Sequence record: OR699282.2
DNA: 64,000 bases
Direction: 5' to 3' (one strand)
DNA from: Escherichia phage BAU.Micro_ELP-22
The notes under the pieces were generated by a model. It did not search any database and was not told the origin of the DNA. It was given only the letters and a program-made list of their open reading frames with translations. The position numbers were made by a program, and so were the translations under genes. Below are positions 7,646-63,211 of the stretch, piece after piece (position 1 is the stretch's first letter; each line of letters starts with the position of its first letter).

Positions 7646-9753
<2,108 letters not shown>

Positions 9754-12416: not shown

Positions 12417-13397
12417 ATGGCTAAAAAAATTAATGAAGCACAAGTTAAAATCGATATCGCAGGTTTAGAATCTGATGATTTGGAAACTCTATCACGTATG
12501 TTAGCTCTTGCTGGTCAAGCTGAACGTCAAGACCCAGTAGTTGCTGCTCCAGTACCATCTATGGGGTCTATGACTCCATCTCTTCCACCTATTGCTCCAC
12601 TAGATCTCGATTCTATTGGTGCTGAAGAAGAAATTGGTGGAATTGAAACTTCAGTTGAAGACCCACTAGCAGCGGCAGTTGATGATCTTTCCGCTGATGT
12701 TGGTGATTTTGGTGCTGACACAGATGAAGTTAGTATGGATGCTGAATTTTCAGAACCAGGTGTAGAAGGTGAAGAAGATTTTTCTCTTGACCTTAGTGGT
12801 CAACCTCAACTAGAATCAGTTGAAGAAGACGATGAGGAAGAAGAGGAAATTATTGAAGAAGAATTCGATTTTAGTCGTATGCTATCCCTTGCTGGTATTA
12901 ACGAAGAAGAAGACGAAGATTTTTCCGTAGAGGGTAATCCTGCTACCGATAAAGAAATGAAAGATACCCAATTTCTACCAGATCTAAGTATCTCTGAAGA
13001 TGAAGAACCATCTAACAGTACTGATTATGGTCCATATGAAACAGAAGCTGATGCCGTTCGTGATGGTCAACTAAAGACTAATGGTGTTGAAGGTGACCAT
13101 TTTGTTGTAATTGCAAAAGGCAATCAATTTTATTGGAGACGTGTTGTAGATGAAGATCTTGACAATCGTCCAGAACCTGAGTATTATGATAATGAAGGGA
13201 ACGAAAATCGTGTTCATAAATTTGAACCAAAATTCCCAGGCACTGCATTAGGAGATAACCCACTAAATGTTAATGAAAGTGAAGAAGATGATTCACCTGA
13301 AGGTAACATTGACTTGGAAGATGATTCTGATGAAGAAGTAGAAGATATTTTTGAAAGTCTCCAAGAAAAATACAAGAAATTTTTAGGAGACAAATAA
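12417..13397 (+). CDS. highly acidic low-complexity protein
   Basis: Long D/E runs (EEDDEEEEEIIEEEFDF); repeated SRMLxLAG motif. Confidence 0.45.
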   Translation: MAKKINEAQVKIDIAGLESDDLETLSRMLALAGQAERQDPVVAAPVPSMGSMTPSLPPIAPLDLDSIGAEEEIGGIETSVEDPLAAAVDDLSADVGDFGADTDEVSMDAEFSEPGVEGEEDFSLDLSGQPQLESVEEDDEEEEEIIEEEFDFSRMLSLAGINEEEDEDFSVEGNPATDKEMKDTQFLPDLSISEDEEPSNSTDYGPYETEADAVRDGQLKTNGVEGDHFVVIAKGNQFYWRRVVDEDLDNRPEPEYYDNEGNENRVHKFEPKFPGTALGDNPLNVNESEEDDSPEGNIDLEDDSDEEVEDIFESLQEKYKKFLGDK

Positions 13398-13398
13398 T

Positions 13399-13794
13399 AT
13401 GCAATATAATTATCGTGAACTAGTTGAAGCGTTAGACGAAATTACCGGAAGAGATGAAGACGAAAGTTTTTCAGTTGAAGTTGAATCCGATGTTGTAGCA
13501 GTTGATGTTCTTAAGGATATTACCAAATGTCTTATTGATATTGTTGATAAGATTAAATCTGGTGAAGACCAAAAAGAAATTGTAGATAAACTACAAAAAG
13601 CCTGTGACATTTTGTCTGACATTCGATATAATGATGAAAGTACTGAAGTTGCTGATGAAGAAGTGTTGGAAGCCATTGCAGGTTGTTTTGGAACTGAAGG
13701 TATGGGACCAACAATTGACAAAGAAGGCGTACAACACTATAATGAGCCTGGTGCACCATCTTATGCTGCACGTCAAGGTTTTGTTGGAGACTAA
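13399..13794 (+). CDS. hypothetical acidic protein
   Basis: ATG 2 bp after previous stop. Confidence 0.4.
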   Translation: MQYNYRELVEALDEITGRDEDESFSVEVESDVVAVDVLKDITKCLIDIVDKIKSGEDQKEIVDKLQKACDILSDIRYNDESTEVADEEVLEAIAGCFGTEGMGPTIDKEGVQHYNEPGAPSYAARQGFVGD

Positions 13795-13797
13795 TAT

Positions 13798-14178
13798 ATG
13801 TTTCCAGAACCATCACATAACAGTACTGAATATCAAAATAATGTACTTTCCAAAGTTAGGGAAGTACATGAATCAGATTCAGAAATAACAGACCGTATGC
13901 TTCTGATGTCAATTTTTGAAAATTTCAGAACTGGCGGTGGTTTACGTCTTAGCAAGTTTGGGTATGGAATTTGTAAAGAAAATAATCTTTATGAATTTAC
14001 AAAAATCCCCTTGCAAAGAGAATTTAAAAGTTCTATAATGTTTACATCACTTGACAGAATATGTACTTCACCTTATTATGTTGAAGGTCAGTACATATAT
14101 CTGACAGATGCAATGATAATAACTGAATTAACATTGTGTTGTGATGATTTTAAACAGTTATTTTCTATTCATATGTAA
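13798..14178 (+). CDS. hypothetical protein
   Basis: ATG start; no motif. Confidence 0.4.
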   Translation: MFPEPSHNSTEYQNNVLSKVREVHESDSEITDRMLLMSIFENFRTGGGLRLSKFGYGICKENNLYEFTKIPLQREFKSSIMFTSLDRICTSPYYVEGQYIYLTDAMIITELTLCCDDFKQLFSIHM

Positions 14179-14201
14179 GAAAAATGAATTAAAAATAAAT
14201 G

Positions 14202-14229
14202 TTGACAAGATAGAATGATGTGATACAAT
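14202..14229 (+). promoter_or_regulatory. sigma70-type promoter P1 (TTGACA, 16 nt, TGaTACAAT)
   Basis: -35 TTGACA 14202-14207; extended -10 at 14221-14229. Confidence 0.6.
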
Positions 14230-14295
14230 AAGCATCAGACATAAAGTTTTCAAGCGACACAAGATGTGAGTTTGAAAAAAAAAGAAAAAAAGTGA

Positions 14296-14323
14296 TTGAC
14301 AAGTTGAAACGATGTGATATAAT
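14296..14323 (+). promoter_or_regulatory. sigma70-type promoter P2 (TTGACA, 16 nt, TGaTATAAT), a tandem copy of P1
   Basis: -35 14296-14301; -10 TATAAT 14318-14323 with upstream TG; flanks align with P1 (GTTGACAAG...GATGTGATA). Confidence 0.65.
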
Positions 14324-14492
14324 GTTCACATCAAGACAGCAAAGAGATTTACCTTTTAAACACACGGATGATTCATGAAGTAACAAAGGAACTGATAAGT
14401 TAAATTATTTTAACACAGTTCCTTTACTTTTGCCCACGGATTGGCTATAATAGAAACTTAAACGATTTTATCCAACAAAAGGAAATATATAC

Positions 14493-15818
14493 ATGACTAC
14501 TCAAAACGATATCCTGAACGTTAAACTGACTCCAAAGAAAGCTAAAGAAGCAATGGCACTAGCTGACATGATTCAAGATAGCCTGATGATTTGGGGTAGC
14601 CCAGGTATCGGTAAGTCTGCAATCGCTCGTCAATACGCTGATGAAAATTACCCACTGCGTAAAGATAACGTAGCTAAAATCGAGTTCATGAAACAACAAA
14701 TCGAAGCTGACCCTGAAAATGCTGATCAGCTACGTCGTGAACTGGCTGCATTTGAAGCAAAACTAATCGACCAAGATACTAACTTTATCGATTTCCGTTT
14801 GTCTCAAATCGAACCAAGTGACCTTCGCGGTATTCCAGTACCAGAGAAGCTTTTCCGTAAAACTGACGGTTCTCTTCTGAAAGAATCTGAGCTTGCCGAA
14901 GCAAAAGATTATGTAGCTGAAACTGCGGTAGTATGGGCTGCACCTAAAGTTCTGAAATTGTCCGAAGATTGGAAAGGTGTTATTCTGTTTGACGAAATTA
15001 ACTCTGCAATGCCTATTGTTCAGGCAGCGTCTTATCAGCTAATCCTCGACCGTTGTGTTGGTGAGATGAAGCTACCTAAGACTGCACTGATTCTTGCAGC
15101 AGGTAACCGTGAAACTGATGGCGGTGTAACTTTCTCTCTTGCTACACCACTGCGTGACCGTATGACTCACATTGAGATGATTCCTTATCATCAAGATTGG
15201 ATTAACGATTATGCGATTGCAAAACGTTTGAACCCAGCAACTGTTGCGTTCATCAACAACACTGGTTCTAAGTACTTTAACACACTTAGTCCACAAGATC
15301 CTTCTCACAGTGGTGGTACTTCTCCACGTTCATGGGAAGCAGTAGCACGCTACGAAGATCTCAAGAAAACTAAGACAATTGATAAAGAAGTGTTCCGTGC
15401 AATGATTGCTGGTCGTGTTGGTGAAGGTGTTGCAACTGAATACATTGAGTACGTTGAGAACGTTGCTAAACTACCAGATACTATGTCTATTCTGTCTGGT
15501 GAAATCAAAGAAATCGACGCAACGCTGGATATTTCTGCGAACTACTTTATCACTCTGAACTTGGTTTATAAAATTATCGACCTGTTCAATGAGAAGCAAG
15601 AACAACGTCTACCAGTGGAAGAATGGGGTAAACTGTGTAACAACTTCATCACCTTCCTAGACCATAACTTCTCTGCAACTCAAGCAGAACTGGCAGTACT
15701 GGCAATTCGTACCATCACGCTTCATAAGGTTGCGATTTCCATTAAAGATGTACCAGCGTTTAAAGATTTCATCGCTAAGTACTCTGATCTTGTACGTAAA
15801 GCACGCTCTCTTGGCTAA
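14493..15818 (+). CDS. MoxR-family AAA+ ATPase
   Basis: Walker A GSPGIGKS (14595-14618); Walker B ILFDEINSA; MoxR-like blocks RLSQIEPSDLRGIP and ALILAAGNRETDGG. Confidence 0.8.
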   Translation: MTTQNDILNVKLTPKKAKEAMALADMIQDSLMIWGSPGIGKSAIARQYADENYPLRKDNVAKIEFMKQQIEADPENADQLRRELAAFEAKLIDQDTNFIDFRLSQIEPSDLRGIPVPEKLFRKTDGSLLKESELAEAKDYVAETAVVWAAPKVLKLSEDWKGVILFDEINSAMPIVQAASYQLILDRCVGEMKLPKTALILAAGNRETDGGVTFSLATPLRDRMTHIEMIPYHQDWINDYAIAKRLNPATVAFINNTGSKYFNTLSPQDPSHSGGTSPRSWEAVARYEDLKKTKTIDKEVFRAMIAGRVGEGVATEYIEYVENVAKLPDTMSILSGEIKEIDATLDISANYFITLNLVYKIIDLFNEKQEQRLPVEEWGKLCNNFITFLDHNFSATQAELAVLAIRTITLHKVAISIKDVPAFKDFIAKYSDLVRKARSLG

Positions 15819-15833
15819 TTAACAAAGAGTTGT

Positions 15834-15870
15834 TGACAAGAAGGATGCCTAATGGTATCCTTCTTTTATC
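15834..15870 (+). promoter_or_regulatory. intergenic TTGACA box overlapping a weak hairpin (possible internal promoter or attenuator)
   Basis: GTTGACAAG at 15833-15841; AAGGAT...ATCCTT stem then T-rich tract; -10 candidate TATCCT is weak. Confidence 0.3.
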
Positions 15871-17329: not shown

Positions 17330-17360
17330 GAGAACGGAATTTTCCGTTCTCTTCTTTTAT
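17330..17360 (+). terminator. rho-independent terminator
   Basis: GAGAACGG-aatt-CCGTTCTC stem followed by TTCTTTTAT. Confidence 0.65.
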
Positions 17361-17362
17361 AA

Positions 17363-17392
17363 GTGGGACAACTTATAAAAATATGATATAAT
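17363..17392 (+). promoter_or_regulatory. sigma70-type promoter (GTGGGACAA, 16 nt, TGaTATAAT)
   Basis: -35-like GGGACA 17365-17370; TG 17384-17385; TATAAT 17387-17392; same architecture at 63127-63154. Confidence 0.5.
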
Positions 17393-21943: not shown

Positions 21944-23680
21944 TTAAACTACAGAAACTCCACTCATTGAAGGTGGAACGATTTGTTCAGCAATTAATAA
22001 TAAATTAGTTACTGTAAACTTACCACCATGTGACATTAACGTAATAGGTGTTCCATTAGTTACTAGGTTACCATTTTCATCAACACTTAAAAATGTATTA
22101 AATGAAATAGTATCAACCGTGATAGTTGGTGTTCTAACTTGATTGATATTATTAAATTGAGTATTTGTAAAATTAATAGCAAAACTCATATTAGACGAAC
22201 TAGTAGTCCATGTACCGTATATATTTAATTTGAAATTTAGAGAGGAATTGAAATTATAAACATTTAACTTATTACTTGTTGTATTGAAGAAACTATCTAG
22301 TGTTCCACTAGTGGGTGTGAATGATTTAAGTATTTGAATTAAATTTTGTTCAATTCCATCAGTGAATTGTATATTTAAGTTTGAATAATATAATTCTCTT
22401 TTTCGACGAATTAGGTTAGTAGTATTATTACCATTAACAAATAATCCAGTACTATCTGATGTTAATATATTACCAGAGGTATTACTGATTTTAGATGAAA
22501 TTACATTAGCGTCAATAGATATACCATTTCCCGCAGTATATGAGGATGGCCCAGATGGAACATACAACCCATTTACGTCAGTTGTTAACGTATTTCCTGG
22601 CGTTGTGCTTATTTTAGTTGAAATTGTTTCAGAACTAATAGATATACCAGTACCACCAACGTAATTTATTCTTGTATTAGGTACAAATAATCCAGTACTG
22701 TCAGTAGATAGTATATTACCAGAAGTAGAACTAATTTTAGTACTGATTACTTCACCACTGATAGAAACACCGGAACCAGCACTATAAGATACTGAATTAT
22801 CAGGCACAAATAAACCATTACTTGTAGAAGATAGTATGTTTTCTGATGTCGGGTCAACCTTCACACTTATTACATCATCACTAATTGAAATTCCATTTCC
22901 TCCATTATAAGTAATTGAGCTATTAGGTACGAATAATCCATTAATATCTGATGTTAGTATATTACCAACAGTAGAACTAATTTTAGTACTTATTTGGTCA
23001 TCACTAATAGTAATGCCAGTACCAGCATTATAAGTTATCGAATTATCCGGCACGAATAGACCAGTACTATCAGTTGTAAGGATATTTCCTAAAGATGTGC
23101 TTATTTTTGATGATATAATATTATTATCTATTTTAATACTTTCACTACCTGTATATGTTACGGTATTATCAGGTACATATAAACCATCTTCGGCAATCGT
23201 GAGGATGTTACTAGGTGATGTACTGATTTTAGTTGAGATAGTATTATCACTTATTGATACACCCGTGCCACCAGAATACACAATTGAGGTATTAGGTACA
23301 TATAAACCATTAGCATCAGATATCAGAATATTTCCAGAATTTAAACTCACTTTAGCAGATATAACATTTGTATTAACATCTATACCATTTCCAGCTACAT
23401 AACTTACAGTATTATCAGGAACATACAAACCATTAGAATCATTACTAAGAATATTGCCTTGTGTTGAACTTATTTTTGTGGATATTAAATTAGAAGATAT
23501 TGATATACCAGTTCCACCTTGATAGTTAATAGTATTATCTGGAACATATAAACCATCACTTTCATGAATTAAAATATTTTTATTTTTAGTACTAATATCA
23601 GGCACTGGTATCTTGCCTATTAGTTCGCCGTCATAACTGATATCACCATTTACAATAATATCTGTTCTTATATTATACAT
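21944..23680 (-). CDS. tail fibre protein with about eleven tandem ~35-aa repeats
   Basis: Repeats of ...ISTKISSTxGNILTxDSxGLFVPDNSxxYxxGxGISIS...; ORF-track start 23704 is TTG, first ATG with SD at 23680. Confidence 0.55.
   Translation of the reverse strand: MYNIRTDIIVNGDISYDGELIGKIPVPDISTKNKNILIHESDGLYVPDNTINYQGGTGISISSNLISTKISSTQGNILSNDSNGLYVPDNTVSYVAGNGIDVNTNVISAKVSLNSGNILISDANGLYVPNTSIVYSGGTGVSISDNTISTKISTSPSNILTIAEDGLYVPDNTVTYTGSESIKIDNNIISSKISTSLGNILTTDSTGLFVPDNSITYNAGTGITISDDQISTKISSTVGNILTSDINGLFVPNSSITYNGGNGISISDDVISVKVDPTSENILSSTSNGLFVPDNSVSYSAGSGVSISGEVISTKISSTSGNILSTDSTGLFVPNTRINYVGGTGISISSETISTKISTTPGNTLTTDVNGLYVPSGPSSYTAGNGISIDANVISSKISNTSGNILTSDSTGLFVNGNNTTNLIRRKRELYYSNLNIQFTDGIEQNLIQILKSFTPTSGTLDSFFNTTSNKLNVYNFNSSLNFKLNIYGTWTTSSSNMSFAINFTNTQFNNINQVRTPTITVDTISFNTFLSVDENGNLVTNGTPITLMSHGGKFTVTNLLLIAEQIVPPSMSGVSVV
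22460..23600 (-). repeat. in-frame tandem coding repeats (~105 bp unit, about 11 copies)
   Basis: Periodic peptide repeat visible in the translation of 21944-23680. Confidence 0.6.
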
Positions 23681-40152: not shown

Positions 40153-40180
40153 TAGACAAACCGTAAGAATGTGATATAAT
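40153..40180 (+). promoter_or_regulatory. sigma70-type promoter (TAGACA, 16 nt, TGaTATAAT)
   Basis: -35-like 40153-40158; TG 40172-40173; TATAAT 40175-40180. Confidence 0.55.
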
Positions 40181-57076: not shown

Positions 57077-57084
57077 TATTTATA
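57077..57084 (-). promoter_or_regulatory. T4-type late promoter box TATAAATA (minus strand)
   Basis: Exact TATAAATA 16 nt upstream of the lysozyme ATG, followed by GAGGA SD. Confidence 0.5.
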
Positions 57085-63080: not shown

Positions 63081-63126
63081 CTTTTTGATTCTCCATAATA
63101 AGGGAACATTTGATGTATTTATACGT

Positions 63127-63154
63127 GGGACAAACTGCTTTTTGGTGCTATAAT
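63127..63154 (+). promoter_or_regulatory. sigma70-type promoter (GTGGGACAA, 16 nt, TGcTATAAT)
   Basis: GGGACA 63127-63132; TG 63146-63147; TATAAT 63149-63154; palindrome GGTACAAGGATTGTACC at 63164-63180 follows. Confidence 0.5.
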
Positions 63155-63211
63155 AACATTGATGGTACAAGGATTGTACCTATTGGATTTAAACATGGAG
63201 AGTAAAATACA

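Follow-up and report, generated by a model that had tools for sequence, protein, structure and literature searches.

Tandem promoter-like sites and a conserved structured leader upstream of a MoxR-type ATPase gene in an Asteriusvirus jumbo coliphage

The gap before the ATPase gene

The window, that is, the whole stretch of 64,000 nucleotides analysed here (Escherichia phage BAU.Micro_ELP-22, OR699282.2), originates from a PBECO4/121Q-like Asteriusvirus jumbo coliphage with a genome of about 350 kb and about 35% GC, and is 99.8% identical to PBECO4 and 99.7% identical to 121Q. A 314-bp gap separates the last gene of a structural block from a MoxR-type AAA ATPase / VWA gene pair, in which the gene for the AAA protein is followed by that for a DUF2201_N/VWA-like (VWA-metallopeptidase-like) protein. 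The gap and its borders contain the following features.

14176-14178, + strand: stop codon TAA of the upstream gene
14180-14201, + strand: A/T-rich UP-like tract of P1, beginning 2 nt past the upstream-gene stop, within 49-nt repeat D1
14202-14229, + strand: putative promoter P1; TTGACA at 14202-14207, 16 nt, TACAAT at 14224-14229, with extended -10 TGTGA; predicted start ~14236
14247-14278, + strand: hairpin in the P1 transcript (RNAfold), UUUUCAAGC..CACA-AGA-UGUG..GUUUGAAAA, reaching the A tract
14274-14292, + strand: A9-G-A7 tract, UP-like, for P2; conserved in Asteriusvirus
14296-14323, + strand: putative promoter P2; TTGACA at 14296-14301, 16 nt, TATAAT at 14318-14323, with extended -10 TGTGA; predicted start ~14330
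14360-14371, + strand: GGA site 1, ACACACGGAUGA, including the first CACGGAT; unpaired, 14 nt before HP1
14385-14432, + strand: hairpin HP1; outer stem 14385-94/14416-25, inner stem 14399-04/14409-14, tail ACUUUUG at 14426-32
14423-14451, + strand: putative promoter P3; TTTACT, 17 nt, TATAAT (10/12), overlapping the HP1 tail and HP2; predicted start ~14458
14432-14445, + strand: hairpin HP2, GCCCA-CGGA-UUGGC, including the second CACGGAT, with GGA in the loop
14477-14495, + strand: Shine-Dalgarno region AAAAGGAAA and the ATPase ATG
14493-15818, + strand: AAA ATPase gene, 441 aa, with ATG at 14493

The tandem pair that a sequence-only reading had placed at 14202-14323 is present as it was described, and the duplication of the promoter module was also confirmed: P1 and P2 lie in a 49-nt direct repeat, the copies of which are 71% identical and 94 nt apart. 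This 94-bp duplication is retained across Asteriusvirus, and SP27 has three copies through a further duplication of 96 nt. P1 matches the sigma-70 consensus at 11 and P2 at all 12 of the 12 positions, and P2 is one of just three intergenic sites of 121Q that combine perfect hexamers with TGn. In six other Asteriusvirus genomes, which are 81-97% identical across a 701-nt stretch, the hexamers and TG of both promoters are constant and the spacers variable. The hexamers and TG of P1 are retained in UE-S1, ph0011, TH47, CMSTMSU, JNE01, A4 and RaK2; P2 is conserved in Asteriusvirus and degenerate in RaK2. The sequence block of the hairpin at 14247-14278 is conserved in the Asteriusvirus alignment, and the A/T tracts upstream of P1 and P2 probably act as UP elements. 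P2 could serve synthetic biology as a compact promoter predicted to be strong and near-ideal, combining UP element, perfect -35 and extended -10. The third candidate, P3, has a weak -35, and its conservation is limited to Asteriusvirus and Hallingskeid; Hallingskeid and JNE01 have TGGTATAAT at this position, RaK2 and Munch carry degenerate versions of P3, and the CBB-like group lacks it.

A probable promoter family at non-structural loci

Sites related to P1 and P2 are found at other places of the window.

1969-1980, + strand: extended -10 only, ATGTGATATAAT, immediately following a terminator hairpin, upstream of gene 549 and the dNMP kinase gene
17365-17392, + strand: class B site GGGACA, 16 nt, TATAAT with TGA, after a terminator hairpin (17330-51) and before genes 565-568 (DprA-like, ThyA)
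40153-40180, + strand: family member TAGACA, 16 nt, TATAAT with TGTGA, in a divergent intergenic region before a ClpA/ClpB-like gene (40221)
63127-63154, + strand: class B site GGGACA, 16 nt, TATAAT with TGC, before the gp55-like late sigma gene (ATG 63212)

The five sites with a GACA-type -35 had been divided into two architectures, class A (P1, P2 and a variant at 40153-40180) and class B, a division that we do not retain, since all belong to one family, NNGACA(A)-16-TGnTATAAT, and differ only at the first two positions of the -35. At the 16-bp spacing the -35 is TTGACA (6/6) in P1 and P2 and GGGACA or TAGACA (4-5/6, with TT, normally the best-conserved part, replaced) elsewhere, and the -10 is TACAAT in P1 and TATAAT at P2, 17387, 40175 and 63149. 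The proposed class A variant is present, but its TAGACA is intermediate and nearer to class B; the class B element GTGGGACAA is found at 17363-17371, but its second copy lies at 63125-63133 and not from 63127. The extended -10 ascribed to both classes is seen at all five sites as TGn, and G precedes this TG at 14 of 22 sites in the genome. The 10-mer GTGATATAAT recurs at 1971-1980, 14314-14323 and 40171-40180, as had been noticed, and occurs also at 8571 and 10673, within genes; at 1969-1980 no -35 match is present.

Hexamer matches alone prove little, because the genome is AT-rich and promoter-like pairs are common: such pairs are near background (42 versus 33.9 expected in 10 kb), and a 12/12 consensus match lies inside a gene at 13715-13743. 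The motif search that had been proposed for the two 9-mers showed neither of them to be enriched alone; with up to one mismatch, GTTGACAAG gave 13 matches versus 20 expected and GTGGGACAA 10 versus 12.6, and the third exact GTTGACAAG, at 15832, is within a terminator stem. On these grounds one might suppose that nothing here is functional and that the sites are chance consensus in AT-rich intergenic DNA or remnants of duplication. This supposition is already disfavoured and we find it hardly credible, because the joint pattern GACA-N13-TGNTANAAT has five matches in the window, the very five sites of the sequence-only reading, versus 0.12 expected (0 of 100 shuffles), and 31 in the 121Q genome versus 4.05 +/- 2.7, with a bias of strand and position (all 31 on the + strand, 24 intergenic), because core elements are conserved where spacers have diverged, and because both hairpins of the leader covary, as described below. 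The 10-mer GTGATATAAT with up to one mismatch is enriched as well (23 versus 12.9 expected, 0 of 100 shuffles). The genome-wide promoter counts were made on 121Q as a proxy, with a simple ORF map of our own. Enrichment, location on the coding strand and between genes, and conservation while spacers drift support the view that the sites act as a real promoter family. Within it P1 and P2 are unusual members, having a true TTGACA -35, A-tract upstream elements and the 94-bp duplication.

The five window sites are all intergenic, on the + strand and 20-270 nt upstream of a non-structural gene, inside the structural module. In 121Q, sites of the family are found before genes of replication and nucleotide metabolism, before a tRNA and before the late sigma gene, the genes served including ssb, primase, exonuclease, topoisomerase II, DNA polymerase, nudix hydrolase and late sigma; tandem class B promoters also precede the ssb and nudix genes. 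The non-structural genes within the structural module, namely ATPase/VWA, thyA/dprA, the Clp-like ATPase, late sigma and dNMP kinase, would carry their own family promoters; four of these five loci have a GACA-type -35, and that at 1969-1980 has the extended -10 only. A separate type, TTGACA-N9-AGTACTG-TATAAT, is predicted to constitute the main early promoters of the phage, and the strict T4-type late motif TATAAATA is found only twice in the window, both times on the - strand before structural genes. About 25 NNGACA(A)-16-TGnTATAAT sites together with this separate early class can serve as a working model of promoters in the Asteriusvirus jumbo coliphages, a group considered for use in phage therapy and biocontrol. 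In the literature searched, we found no published transcription signals for these phages, nor transcript start or end data, transcriptome or promoter map for Asteriusvirus; for RaK2, likewise, we found no transcriptome or promoter map.

Strong tandem promoters, A tracts and short non-coding transcripts also recall origins at which replication is primed by transcription. The T7 primary origin and the T4 middle-promoter origins oriF and oriG have tandem promoters near A/T tracts. That the region is such an origin is nevertheless very improbable: GC skew tracks gene orientation and shows nothing particular at 14.2 kb, what is conserved in the leader is RNA structure, and tandem promoters are not special to this locus, being present also at ssb and nudix.

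Which polymerase reads the family can be asked separately for its two kinds of members. The term "host-type", used for both in the sequence-only reading, suits P1 and P2 with their 11/12 and 12/12 matches, but is less secure for class B, because its upstream element is specific to the clade and the phage encodes a sigma-70-family protein. It is possible, though less than probable, that the class B sites (17365, 40155, 63127 and about 20 more) are read by polymerase carrying the phage sigma of gene 167, or that a phage factor redirects host sigma-70 to them in the manner of T4 MotA/AsiA at middle promoters, and that P1 and P2 are factor-independent versions that have gained TTGACA. The start of the -35 points in this direction, as G is first at 15 and G or A second at 19 of the 22 genome sites, away from the TT preferred by sigma-70. 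So does the switch of the upstream element by clade at fixed geometry, TG(G/A)GACA(A) in Asteriusvirus and TGAAACG in CBB, as do the downstream genes, which are of replication, nucleotide-metabolism and late-sigma type as in CBB. Gene 167 of 121Q is a member of the sigma-70 family with regions 2, 3 and 4, of which region 3 passes the Pfam cut-off, whereas regions 2 and 4 narrowly miss it. On the other hand, the sigma-70 -35 consensus itself ends in GACA, and a tRNA gene and the late sigma gene, the latter needed before the late genes, would each be driven by a class B site, both compatible with host polymerase; moreover, extended -10 promoters function with host sigma-70 despite poor -35 boxes.

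A conserved structured leader

The order of promoter, hairpin and gene is kept in 19 of 19 distinct relatives, and in the CBB-like group the only recognisable promoter is the one upstream of the hairpin. The leader hairpin that had been reported with a 9-bp stem does exist, AAAGGAACTG (14385-14394) pairing with CAGTTCCTTT (14416-14425), but this outer stem has 10 bp, four of them G-C pairs, and is accompanied by an inner stem of 6 bp. Its dG is -15.2 kcal/mol with a z of -4.4; RNAalifold across the relatives recovers it; the relatives have stems of 9-11 bp and loops of 4-6 nt; and compensatory changes are found at three stem pairs among 19 sequences, in at least five phage lineages. The U-rich tail is present on the + strand only, the opposite strand having no U tract, and HP1 is annotated as an ARNold terminator in the record of phage G17. 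We read HP1 as intrinsic-terminator-like, with a probable role as an attenuator, although it could equally be merely the terminator of the upstream late operon. Termination may be inefficient, because the tail is interrupted in the studied phage (UUUACUUUUG, where relatives have CUCUUUUG or UUUUCUUUUU) and the loop region is 21 nt.

At the place of HP2, RNAfold gives a small GGA-loop hairpin in 17 of 19 relatives, with covariation at three of the five stem pairs. The GGA never varies; it lies in loops of the form (A)UGGA(U) or (A)CGGA(U), which an A-U pair closes. In the covariation test, 88.6% of cells are paired versus 77.9% in shuffles, double changes occur in 33 cells versus 11.1, and the covariation score of 0.28 (versus 0.10) was reached by none of 500 shuffles and was far lower in slid controls. 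The hairpin and the heptamers belong to one conserved structured leader. HP2 covaries though it lies beyond the U tract, which argues that read-through RNA matters.

A contrary idea is that P1 and P2 serve to make a small non-coding RNA, some 100 nt long here and some 60-70 nt long in CBB-like phages, the ATPase being expressed mainly via P3 or read-through. In every lineage examined a promoter is followed after 30-100 nt by a canonical terminator, the hairpin with U tail is like that of Hfq-type sRNAs, and the 5' segment (UUAAGA(G/C)A...A-N-GGA) is conserved across genera; the strength of P1 and P2 would exceed the apparent need of an accessory operon, and RNA-seq alone uncovered the ncRNAs expressed by PA5oct, a distant relative. 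We consider this unlikely, however, as the covariation of HP2, 3' of the terminator, would be unexplained if transcripts ended at HP1, CBB-like phages lack an obvious second promoter for the ATPase, and no Rfam family matches. Searched against Rfam, the region (E up to 10) and the whole window (gathering thresholds) returned microRNA/snoRNA noise only.

Several other elements were examined in the leader and rejected. An 11-codon ORF starting at ATG 14367 and crossing the left arm of HP1 is not conserved as a leader peptide, A4 and RaK2 having a stop after three codons and several relatives no ATG, and the two-codon ORF ATGAAGTAA is not conserved either. The U tail (14423-32) is 90% complementary to the Shine-Dalgarno region (14476-85), but RNAalifold does not support this pairing across relatives, and purine and pyrimidine runs pair trivially; pairing of GGAU with AUCC at ~14469 is confined to Asteriusvirus. 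The leader yielded neither an antiterminator nor an alternative antiterminator fold, and neither a nut/qut-like site nor a leader peptide.

The heptamer CACGGAT is repeated in the leader as had been stated, at 14363-14369 and 14435-14441. This pair by itself says little, because the window holds eight copies versus 3.6 expected. Together with the Shine-Dalgarno GGA at ~14481, about 40 nt 3' of HP2, the copies make three leader GGA motifs (14366 and 14438 being the others), and 18 of 19 related leaders have site 1 as an A(U/C/A)GGA motif 10-25 nt 5' of the hairpin. The two copies are conceivable CsrA sites, through which the ATPase operon or the fate of the leader RNA would be coupled to the Csr state of the host, an idea compatible with an attenuator that we nevertheless hold doubtful. 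The named hosts in the compared set are all Enterobacterales, which presumably all carry CsrA. HP2 suits the idea as a short covarying hairpin with an invariant apical-loop GGA in A-N-GGA context, and the late-sigma leader has a similar hairpin, GGUACA-AGGAU-UGUACC, at 63164-63181; but the other class B leaders have none, so that we discarded GGA-loop hairpins as a general rule of class B leaders. CsrA binds dual sites at 10-63 nt spacing, and the two sites here are 72 nt apart, beyond this range. We know of no comparable phage target of CsrA.

The argument for CsrA is one of motif resemblance. The SELEX consensus of CsrA is RUACARGGAUGU, and its invariant ACA and GGA are both present in site 1 (PMC4347634); AUGGA/ANGGA in apical loops is the in vivo motif in Salmonella CLIP-seq (PMC5207318). 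Targets and decoys of CsrA/RsmA have an apical-loop GGA and often a second GGA at the Shine-Dalgarno sequence (PMC4347634, PMC5207318), and the leader resembles them in the 4-6-bp HP2 with its (A)YGGA(U) loop, in the ACA-N-GGA-UG of site 1 and, in the studied phage, in the Shine-Dalgarno GGA. It differs in that the first loop base is a pyrimidine here and a purine in the SELEX consensus, and in that the Shine-Dalgarno GGA is not universal among relatives, being absent from the CBB-like group. GGA also resembles a Shine-Dalgarno sequence itself: most intergenic matches to ACANGGAT in 121Q are ribosome-binding sites, and ACANGGAT is not enriched genome-wide there (36 versus 32.5 expected). The motifs would be explained just as well by an RNA-binding protein of the phage or by a purely structural role; a tblastn search of 121Q with an approximate query sequence found no CsrA homologue (E > 2).

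Proposed control of the operon and comparison with known systems

Taken as a whole, the gap is ordinary phage gene-control sequence with a conserved leader not described before. We read it, with a probability of roughly 0.6, as the control region (promoter, attenuator and leader) of the MoxR-ATPase/VWA operon. Unmodified host RNA polymerase with sigma-70 would transcribe strongly from P1 and P2, and the resulting transcripts would enter a leader consisting of the unpaired A-N-GGA, HP1 with its U-rich tail, HP2 and then the ribosome-binding site. Acting as an attenuator, HP1 would stop most transcription from P1 and P2, and any late transcription arriving from upstream, yielding short RNAs of about 100 and 195 nt. 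The ATPase mRNA would derive from read-through and from the weaker P3 overlapping HP2. The other three window sites would be ordinary members of NNGACA(A)-16-TGnTATAAT, used about 25 times by the phage, a class of middle type that has already been predicted in relatives.

A more elaborate and quite improbable version makes the leader a riboregulatory module of Rak2-like jumbo phages of Enterobacterales, composed of A-N-GGA, terminator hairpin and GGA-loop hairpin, in which CsrA or a phage RNA-binding protein would set termination, read-through, stability or translation of the operon, and the short P1/P2 RNA might be an sRNA or a CsrA decoy. If this were true, the hairpin of the late-sigma leader would link the late switch of the phage to host physiology. 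The covarying leader with its invariant GGA loop is new, and through it attenuation or control by host factors might come to light in jumbo phages.

Strong early promoters of lytic coliphages such as T4 and T5 have sigma-70 consensus hexamers, A-rich UP elements and extended -10. P1 and P2 are alike in having an A tract at about -40 to -60, TTGACA, TGn and TATAAT, and by this analogy should compete very well for unmodified host polymerase. Unlike them, P1 and P2 lie inside a late structural module with a terminator-like hairpin downstream, and the bulk of early promoters of the studied phage have AGTACTG directly before TATAAT. In T4 middle promoters a MotA box replaces the -35 next to a sigma-70 -10, and the AsiA/MotA-modified polymerase reads them. 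The family shares with these a good or extended -10, a phage-specific upstream element and an association with replication, nucleotide-metabolism and late-sigma genes; it differs in having TGGGACA at -37 to -31, where T4 has the MotA box TGCTTtA at about -30, and the studied phage has a sigma-70-family gene. In lambda pR'-tR', a strong constitutive promoter is followed by a promoter-proximal terminator and a short 6S transcript is made by default. The present arrangement appears analogous, with a strong promoter and an intrinsic-type terminator within about 100-200 nt, before genes, whereas regulated read-through is purely hypothetical here, the leader showing neither a nut/qut-like site nor an antiterminator.

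The closest comparison is with the Rak2-like jumbo phages CBB and GAP32 of the same clade, for which Buttimer et al. (2017; PMC5259590) predicted "RpoD-like with UP element" promoters and a "Promoter 1 / divergent RpoD-like" class, TG(A/G)AAC(G)-N-TGnTATAAT; these promoters are predictions, as are those in the studied phage. That paper describes neither a tandem pair with TTGACA nor the conserved hairpins and GGA motifs of the leader, and among the promoters listed Porf_193 is followed by Porf_218, so that a promoter of CBB_216 (the ATPase) is apparently unlisted. The orthologous ATPase promoter is GTGAAACG-..-TGGTATAAT in CBB and TTGGGACAA-..-TGTGATATAAT in Munch-like phages; in CBB and Yersinia-phage-like genomes it takes the form GTGAAAC-..-TGGTATAAT, matching "Promoter 1" as given there. 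The CBB motif TGAAACG also occurs in the P2 spacer (14305-11), which we take for a coincidence, the copy being at the wrong distance from the -10 and variable among Asteriusvirus. The geometry is alike, with TGn and a hexamer that precedes TATAAT by 17 nt in the TGxxAC frame or by 16 nt in the xxGACA frame: CBB has TGAAAC, 17 nt and TATAAT where Asteriusvirus has TGGGAC, 17 nt and TATAAT. The genes downstream are likewise comparable, including DNA-metabolism genes and the gp55-like late sigma gene, before the CBB counterpart of which lies an equivalent site, Porf_244 (PMC5259590). The motif itself differs, Asteriusvirus having TG(G/A)GACA(A), and TTGACAAG in P1 and P2, not TGAAACG, and the Asteriusvirus sites are therefore a lineage variant of the Promoter 1 class and not an identical motif.

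The duplicated promoters before the AAA ATPase gene

Along the 3-kb stretch round the promoters, identity is 99.8% to Escherichia phage PBECO4 and 99.7% to phage 121Q, both of them Asteriusvirus jumbo myoviruses of ~350 kb from the Rak2-like clade; window position 1 is equivalent to ~259,835 in 121Q. A 578-codon ORF at 21944-23680 (-), which stands in the tail-fibre region between the gene 569 and gene 570 homologues, is missing from 121Q at the matching position, and later coordinates are therefore offset by ~1.8 kb. The region studied is a 314-bp gap between genes.

Features of the gap and its borders
14176-14178, stop of hypothetical gene 562, upstream of the gap, the final gene in a run of virion genes
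14202-14229, promoter P1: TTGACA (14202-14207), 16 nt, TACAAT (14224-14229), TGTGA immediately before the latter hexamer
14296-14323, promoter P2: TTGACA (14296-14301), 16 nt, TATAAT (14318-14323), TGTGA immediately before the latter hexamer
14360-14371, site 1, the first GGA motif
14363-14369 and 14435-14441, the two copies of CACGGAT
14385-14432, HP1, a terminator-like stem-loop
14423-14451, P3, promoter-like: TTTACT, 17 nt, TATAAT, overlapping the HP1 tail and HP2
14432-14445, HP2, a small hairpin with GGA in its loop
14493-15818, AAA ATPase gene (441 aa), downstream of the gap

The ATPase, named N4 gp24-like in the RaK2 record, precedes a terminator-like hairpin, after which comes a 474-aa protein whose domains are DUF2201_N metallopeptidase-like and VWA-like, and the two proteins are a MoxR-type ATPase/VWA pair. 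A third exact GTTGACAAG overlaps the 12-bp terminator hairpin at 15832-15865, by which the two genes are parted.

The sequence-only reading had proposed a duplicated promoter module here, with a hairpin and a CACGGAT repeat in the leader. All elements that it listed are present in their places with small corrections only, the hairpin HP1 having a stem of 10 bp (14385-14394 with 14416-14425) plus an inner 6-bp stem instead of 9 bp (dG = -15.2 kcal/mol, z = -4.4). The promoter-type signals are real and P1/P2 form a true duplicated module, in which a 49-nt direct repeat (71% identity, 94 nt apart) holds both promoters together with the A-rich tracts that precede their -35 boxes. Because the likeness reaches the first transcribed bases, CATCA(A)GAC, duplication is supported over convergence on the consensus.

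Both promoters are kept in six other Asteriusvirus genomes (81-97% identity over the compared 701-nt stretch), with hexamers, TGTG and A tracts unchanged and spacers drifting; RaK2 retains P1, and its P2 has decayed to TTGAAT, 17 nt, CATAAT. In SP27 (LC494302.1, about 480-575 in the piece used), the A tract and P2 together with 45 nt of leader are duplicated in tandem once more (96 nt), with the junction within the first CACGGAT, and three promoters stand in a row; this extra copy may be recent or may be an artefact of assembly.

One promoter family in the 121Q genome

Neither of the two 9-mers put forward for a genome-wide search is enriched by itself (GTGGGACAA starts at 17363 and 63125). 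Matches to GACA-N13-TGNTANAAT are exactly the five sites of the sequence-only reading (expected 0.12; at least five in 0 of 100 shuffles), which had divided them into class A (P1, P2 and a variant at 40153-40180) and class B (17363-17392 and 63127-63154). We put together the 121Q genome from nine pieces and scanned it for the pattern NNGA(C/T)A, 12-14 nt, TGnTAnAAT, obtaining 31 sites where Markov controls gave 4.05 +/- 2.7. Every site is on the + strand, a 16-bp spacer is seen in nearly all, and 24 are intergenic on our own ORF map, intergenic DNA being 9% of the genome. The first position of the -35 hexamer is G in 15 and T in 7 of 22 sites, and the second is G in 12, A in 7 and T in 3; A directly follows the hexamer in 18/22, and the DNA upstream is A-rich. 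Since TT at the first two positions occurs in only 3/22 sites (P1, P2 and one other) and the 40153 site, with TAGACA, is intermediate between the types, classes A and B are variants of a single architecture: the sites stand, and their separation into two classes does not.

Tandem family sites precede ssb and, in another pair, a nudix hydrolase gene. The family also serves genes for primase, an exonuclease, topoisomerase II and DNA polymerase, as well as tRNA-Ser, a ClpP-like protease, a Clp ATPase, thyA/dprA and the gp55-like late sigma gene, which by analogy with T4 would be a middle or delayed-early set. P2 is one of three intergenic 121Q sites with perfect hexamers and TGn. Judged by sequence, P1 and P2 agree fully with the host consensus, and the term "host-type" fits them; for class B it is unproven, because the product of 121Q gene 167 belongs to the sigma-70 family and has its regions 2, 3 and 4, and either a host or a phage-type holoenzyme may read this class.

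The conserved leader

We compared 19 distinct homologous leader regions drawn from phages in GenBank and contigs in IMG/VR, whose ATPase identity ranges from 100% to 54%. The order of elements is constant: promoter, A(U/C/A)GGA segment, HP1-type hairpin, second GGA, ribosome-binding site and ATPase gene. A(U/C/A)GGA lies in the short segment after the promoter in 18/19. The HP1-type hairpin is terminator-like with a U-rich tail, and its stem varies in a compensatory manner (GGAACUG/CAGUUCC in the window, GGCACUG/CAGUGCC, GACACUG/CAGUGUC, AGCACUG/CAGUGCU), with one pair deleted in RaK2. RNAfold places the second GGA in a small-hairpin loop in 17 of the 19 leaders, for example CAAA-UGGA-UUUG, CAGA-UGGA-UCUG, GCUUA-UGGA-UAAGC and CCAAA-CGGA-UUUGG; that of the window is GCCCA-CGGA-UUGGC, with a single C-U mismatch. 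Pairs were counted on a MAFFT alignment of the leaders against shuffled and slid controls.

Pairing in the aligned leaders
Cells paired: observed 88.6%, shuffled controls 77.9%
Cells with double-sided changes: observed 33, shuffled controls 11.1 +/- 2.3
Covariation score: observed 0.28, shuffled controls 0.10

The observed values were reached by 0/500 shuffles, and slid controls were 19-53% paired. Covarying pairs number four in helix 1 (core stem 3) and 3/5 in helix 2. RNAalifold on full leaders recovers HP1 alone, and the register of HP2 differs from lineage to lineage. The U tract of HP1 is on the + strand only, and in the phage G17 record the corresponding hairpin is annotated as an ARNold terminator. 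In CBB-like phages the sole recognisable promoter lies upstream of a canonical 11-bp terminator, so the ATPase there must rely on read-through. HP2 lies beyond the U tract yet evolves as an RNA structure, indicating that the read-through RNA matters. Asteriusvirus phages keep P3; in Hallingskeid and JNE01 it carries a proper TGn, and CBB-like phages lack it.

From this anatomy and conservation, we propose, with a probability of about 60%, that P1 and P2 would be strong promoters readable by host polymerase, and that HP1 would attenuate their transcription to RNAs of ~100 and ~195 nt and also terminate late transcription coming in from the structural genes, the ATPase/VWA operon being fed by read-through and P3. 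One of the two main alternatives, that the short P1/P2 RNA is itself the product, is compatible with this attenuator mechanism and appears unlikely. The other, equally compatible and to be regarded with doubt, is the idea that the GGA motifs are candidate sites for host CsrA. The CsrA SELEX consensus is RUACARGGAUGU, with ACA and GGA invariant and GGA favoured in hairpin loops (PMC4347634), and the Salmonella CLIP-seq motif is (A/C)UGGA/ANGGA in apical loops (PMC5207318). Site 1 (ACACACGGAUGA) and HP2 match both descriptions; however, the GGA motif overlaps Shine-Dalgarno sequences and lacks genome-wide enrichment, its intergenic matches being mostly ribosome-binding sites, and comparable hairpins are missing from other class B leaders. 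The conserved leader is the sole part that would surprise a specialist, mildly so before testing.

Other elements and comparison with known promoters

The leader of the late sigma gene starts with a hairpin, GGUACA-AGGAU-UGUACC (63164-63181), whose sequence GUACAAGGAU matches positions 1-10 of the SELEX consensus, and continues with UUGGAU and the Shine-Dalgarno sequence AUGGAGAG. The exact T4-type late motif TATAAATA occurs only twice in the window, at 63116 (-), back to back with the class B promoter of this gene, and at 57077 (-), both intergenic and before - strand structural genes. Near-consensus sigma-70 hexamer pairs at 13159-13187, 13604-13632, 13715-13743 and 14051-14079 (+) fall in the three structural genes that immediately precede P1; TGn is found in 0/4, one is a perfect TTGACA-17-TATAAT, and four in 0.9 kb looks dense for coding DNA.

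Most early-region promoters in 121Q carry a different signature, TTGACA-N9-AGTACTG-TATAAT (>25 copies at about 135-155 kb and 74-97 kb), in which a ScaI-like palindrome directly adjoins the -10; no CBB promoter in Table S5 of the CBB paper has this signature. 121Q has four copies of a composite module, AAAGGGTTGACTTCGGTCAGCCCTTTTTGCTATAAT (98,727, 109,308, 110,590 and 112,758), with the next promoter's -35 box inside a terminator hairpin.

We also found in 121Q (NC_025447.1) a family of four unannotated elements of about 470-540 nt (about 90,330-90,783, 192,840-193,310, 247,505-248,040 and 326,675-327,150; pairwise identity 70-74%), at least three of them downstream of GACA-N13-TGnTATAAT promoters, with zero copies within the window. 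With the four copies as input, RNAalifold predicts 83 pairs, of which 33 show compensatory double changes, and the one copy searched had no family match in Rfam at E up to 0.1. Blastn detects the element, mostly unannotated, at 1-5 copies a genome (in most, 4-5) in 70 Rak2-like phage records of Escherichia, Salmonella, Klebsiella, Erwinia, Serratia, Pectobacterium, Cronobacter, Yersinia and Xanthomonas. We regard the element as a candidate for a new large structured RNA in jumbo phages.

Terminator-then-promoter junctions at 1941-1961 with 1969-1980 and at 17330-17351 with 17365-17392 mark non-structural genes inserted among structural ones. This is the usual order, whereas 14202-14432 is reversed, with the promoter first and the terminator after.

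Our literature search on Asteriusvirus and RaK2 found neither transcript mapping nor promoter analysis. For CBB, Buttimer et al. (PMC5259590) predicted three promoter classes: RpoD-like promoters with UP elements; a "divergent RpoD-like" class, found in GAP32 too, in which TGAAACG replaces the -35 and which precedes DNA-synthesis genes and a gp55-like sigma gene; and a late ATAAATA motif. The orthologous ATPase promoter is GTGAAACG..TGGTATAAT in CBB, Yersinia-phage and Serratia-phage genomes and TTGGGACAA..TGTGATATAAT in Salmonella phage Munch and relatives. In their Table S6 the pattern is TG(A/G)AAC(G/A)-N-TGnTATAAT, and class B, TGGGAC plus 17 nt plus TATAAT, has exactly its geometry. Shared geometry and orthologous promoters thus make class B the Asteriusvirus version of an already predicted class, of which P1 and P2 are, on their motifs, members with the -35 turned canonical TTGACA.
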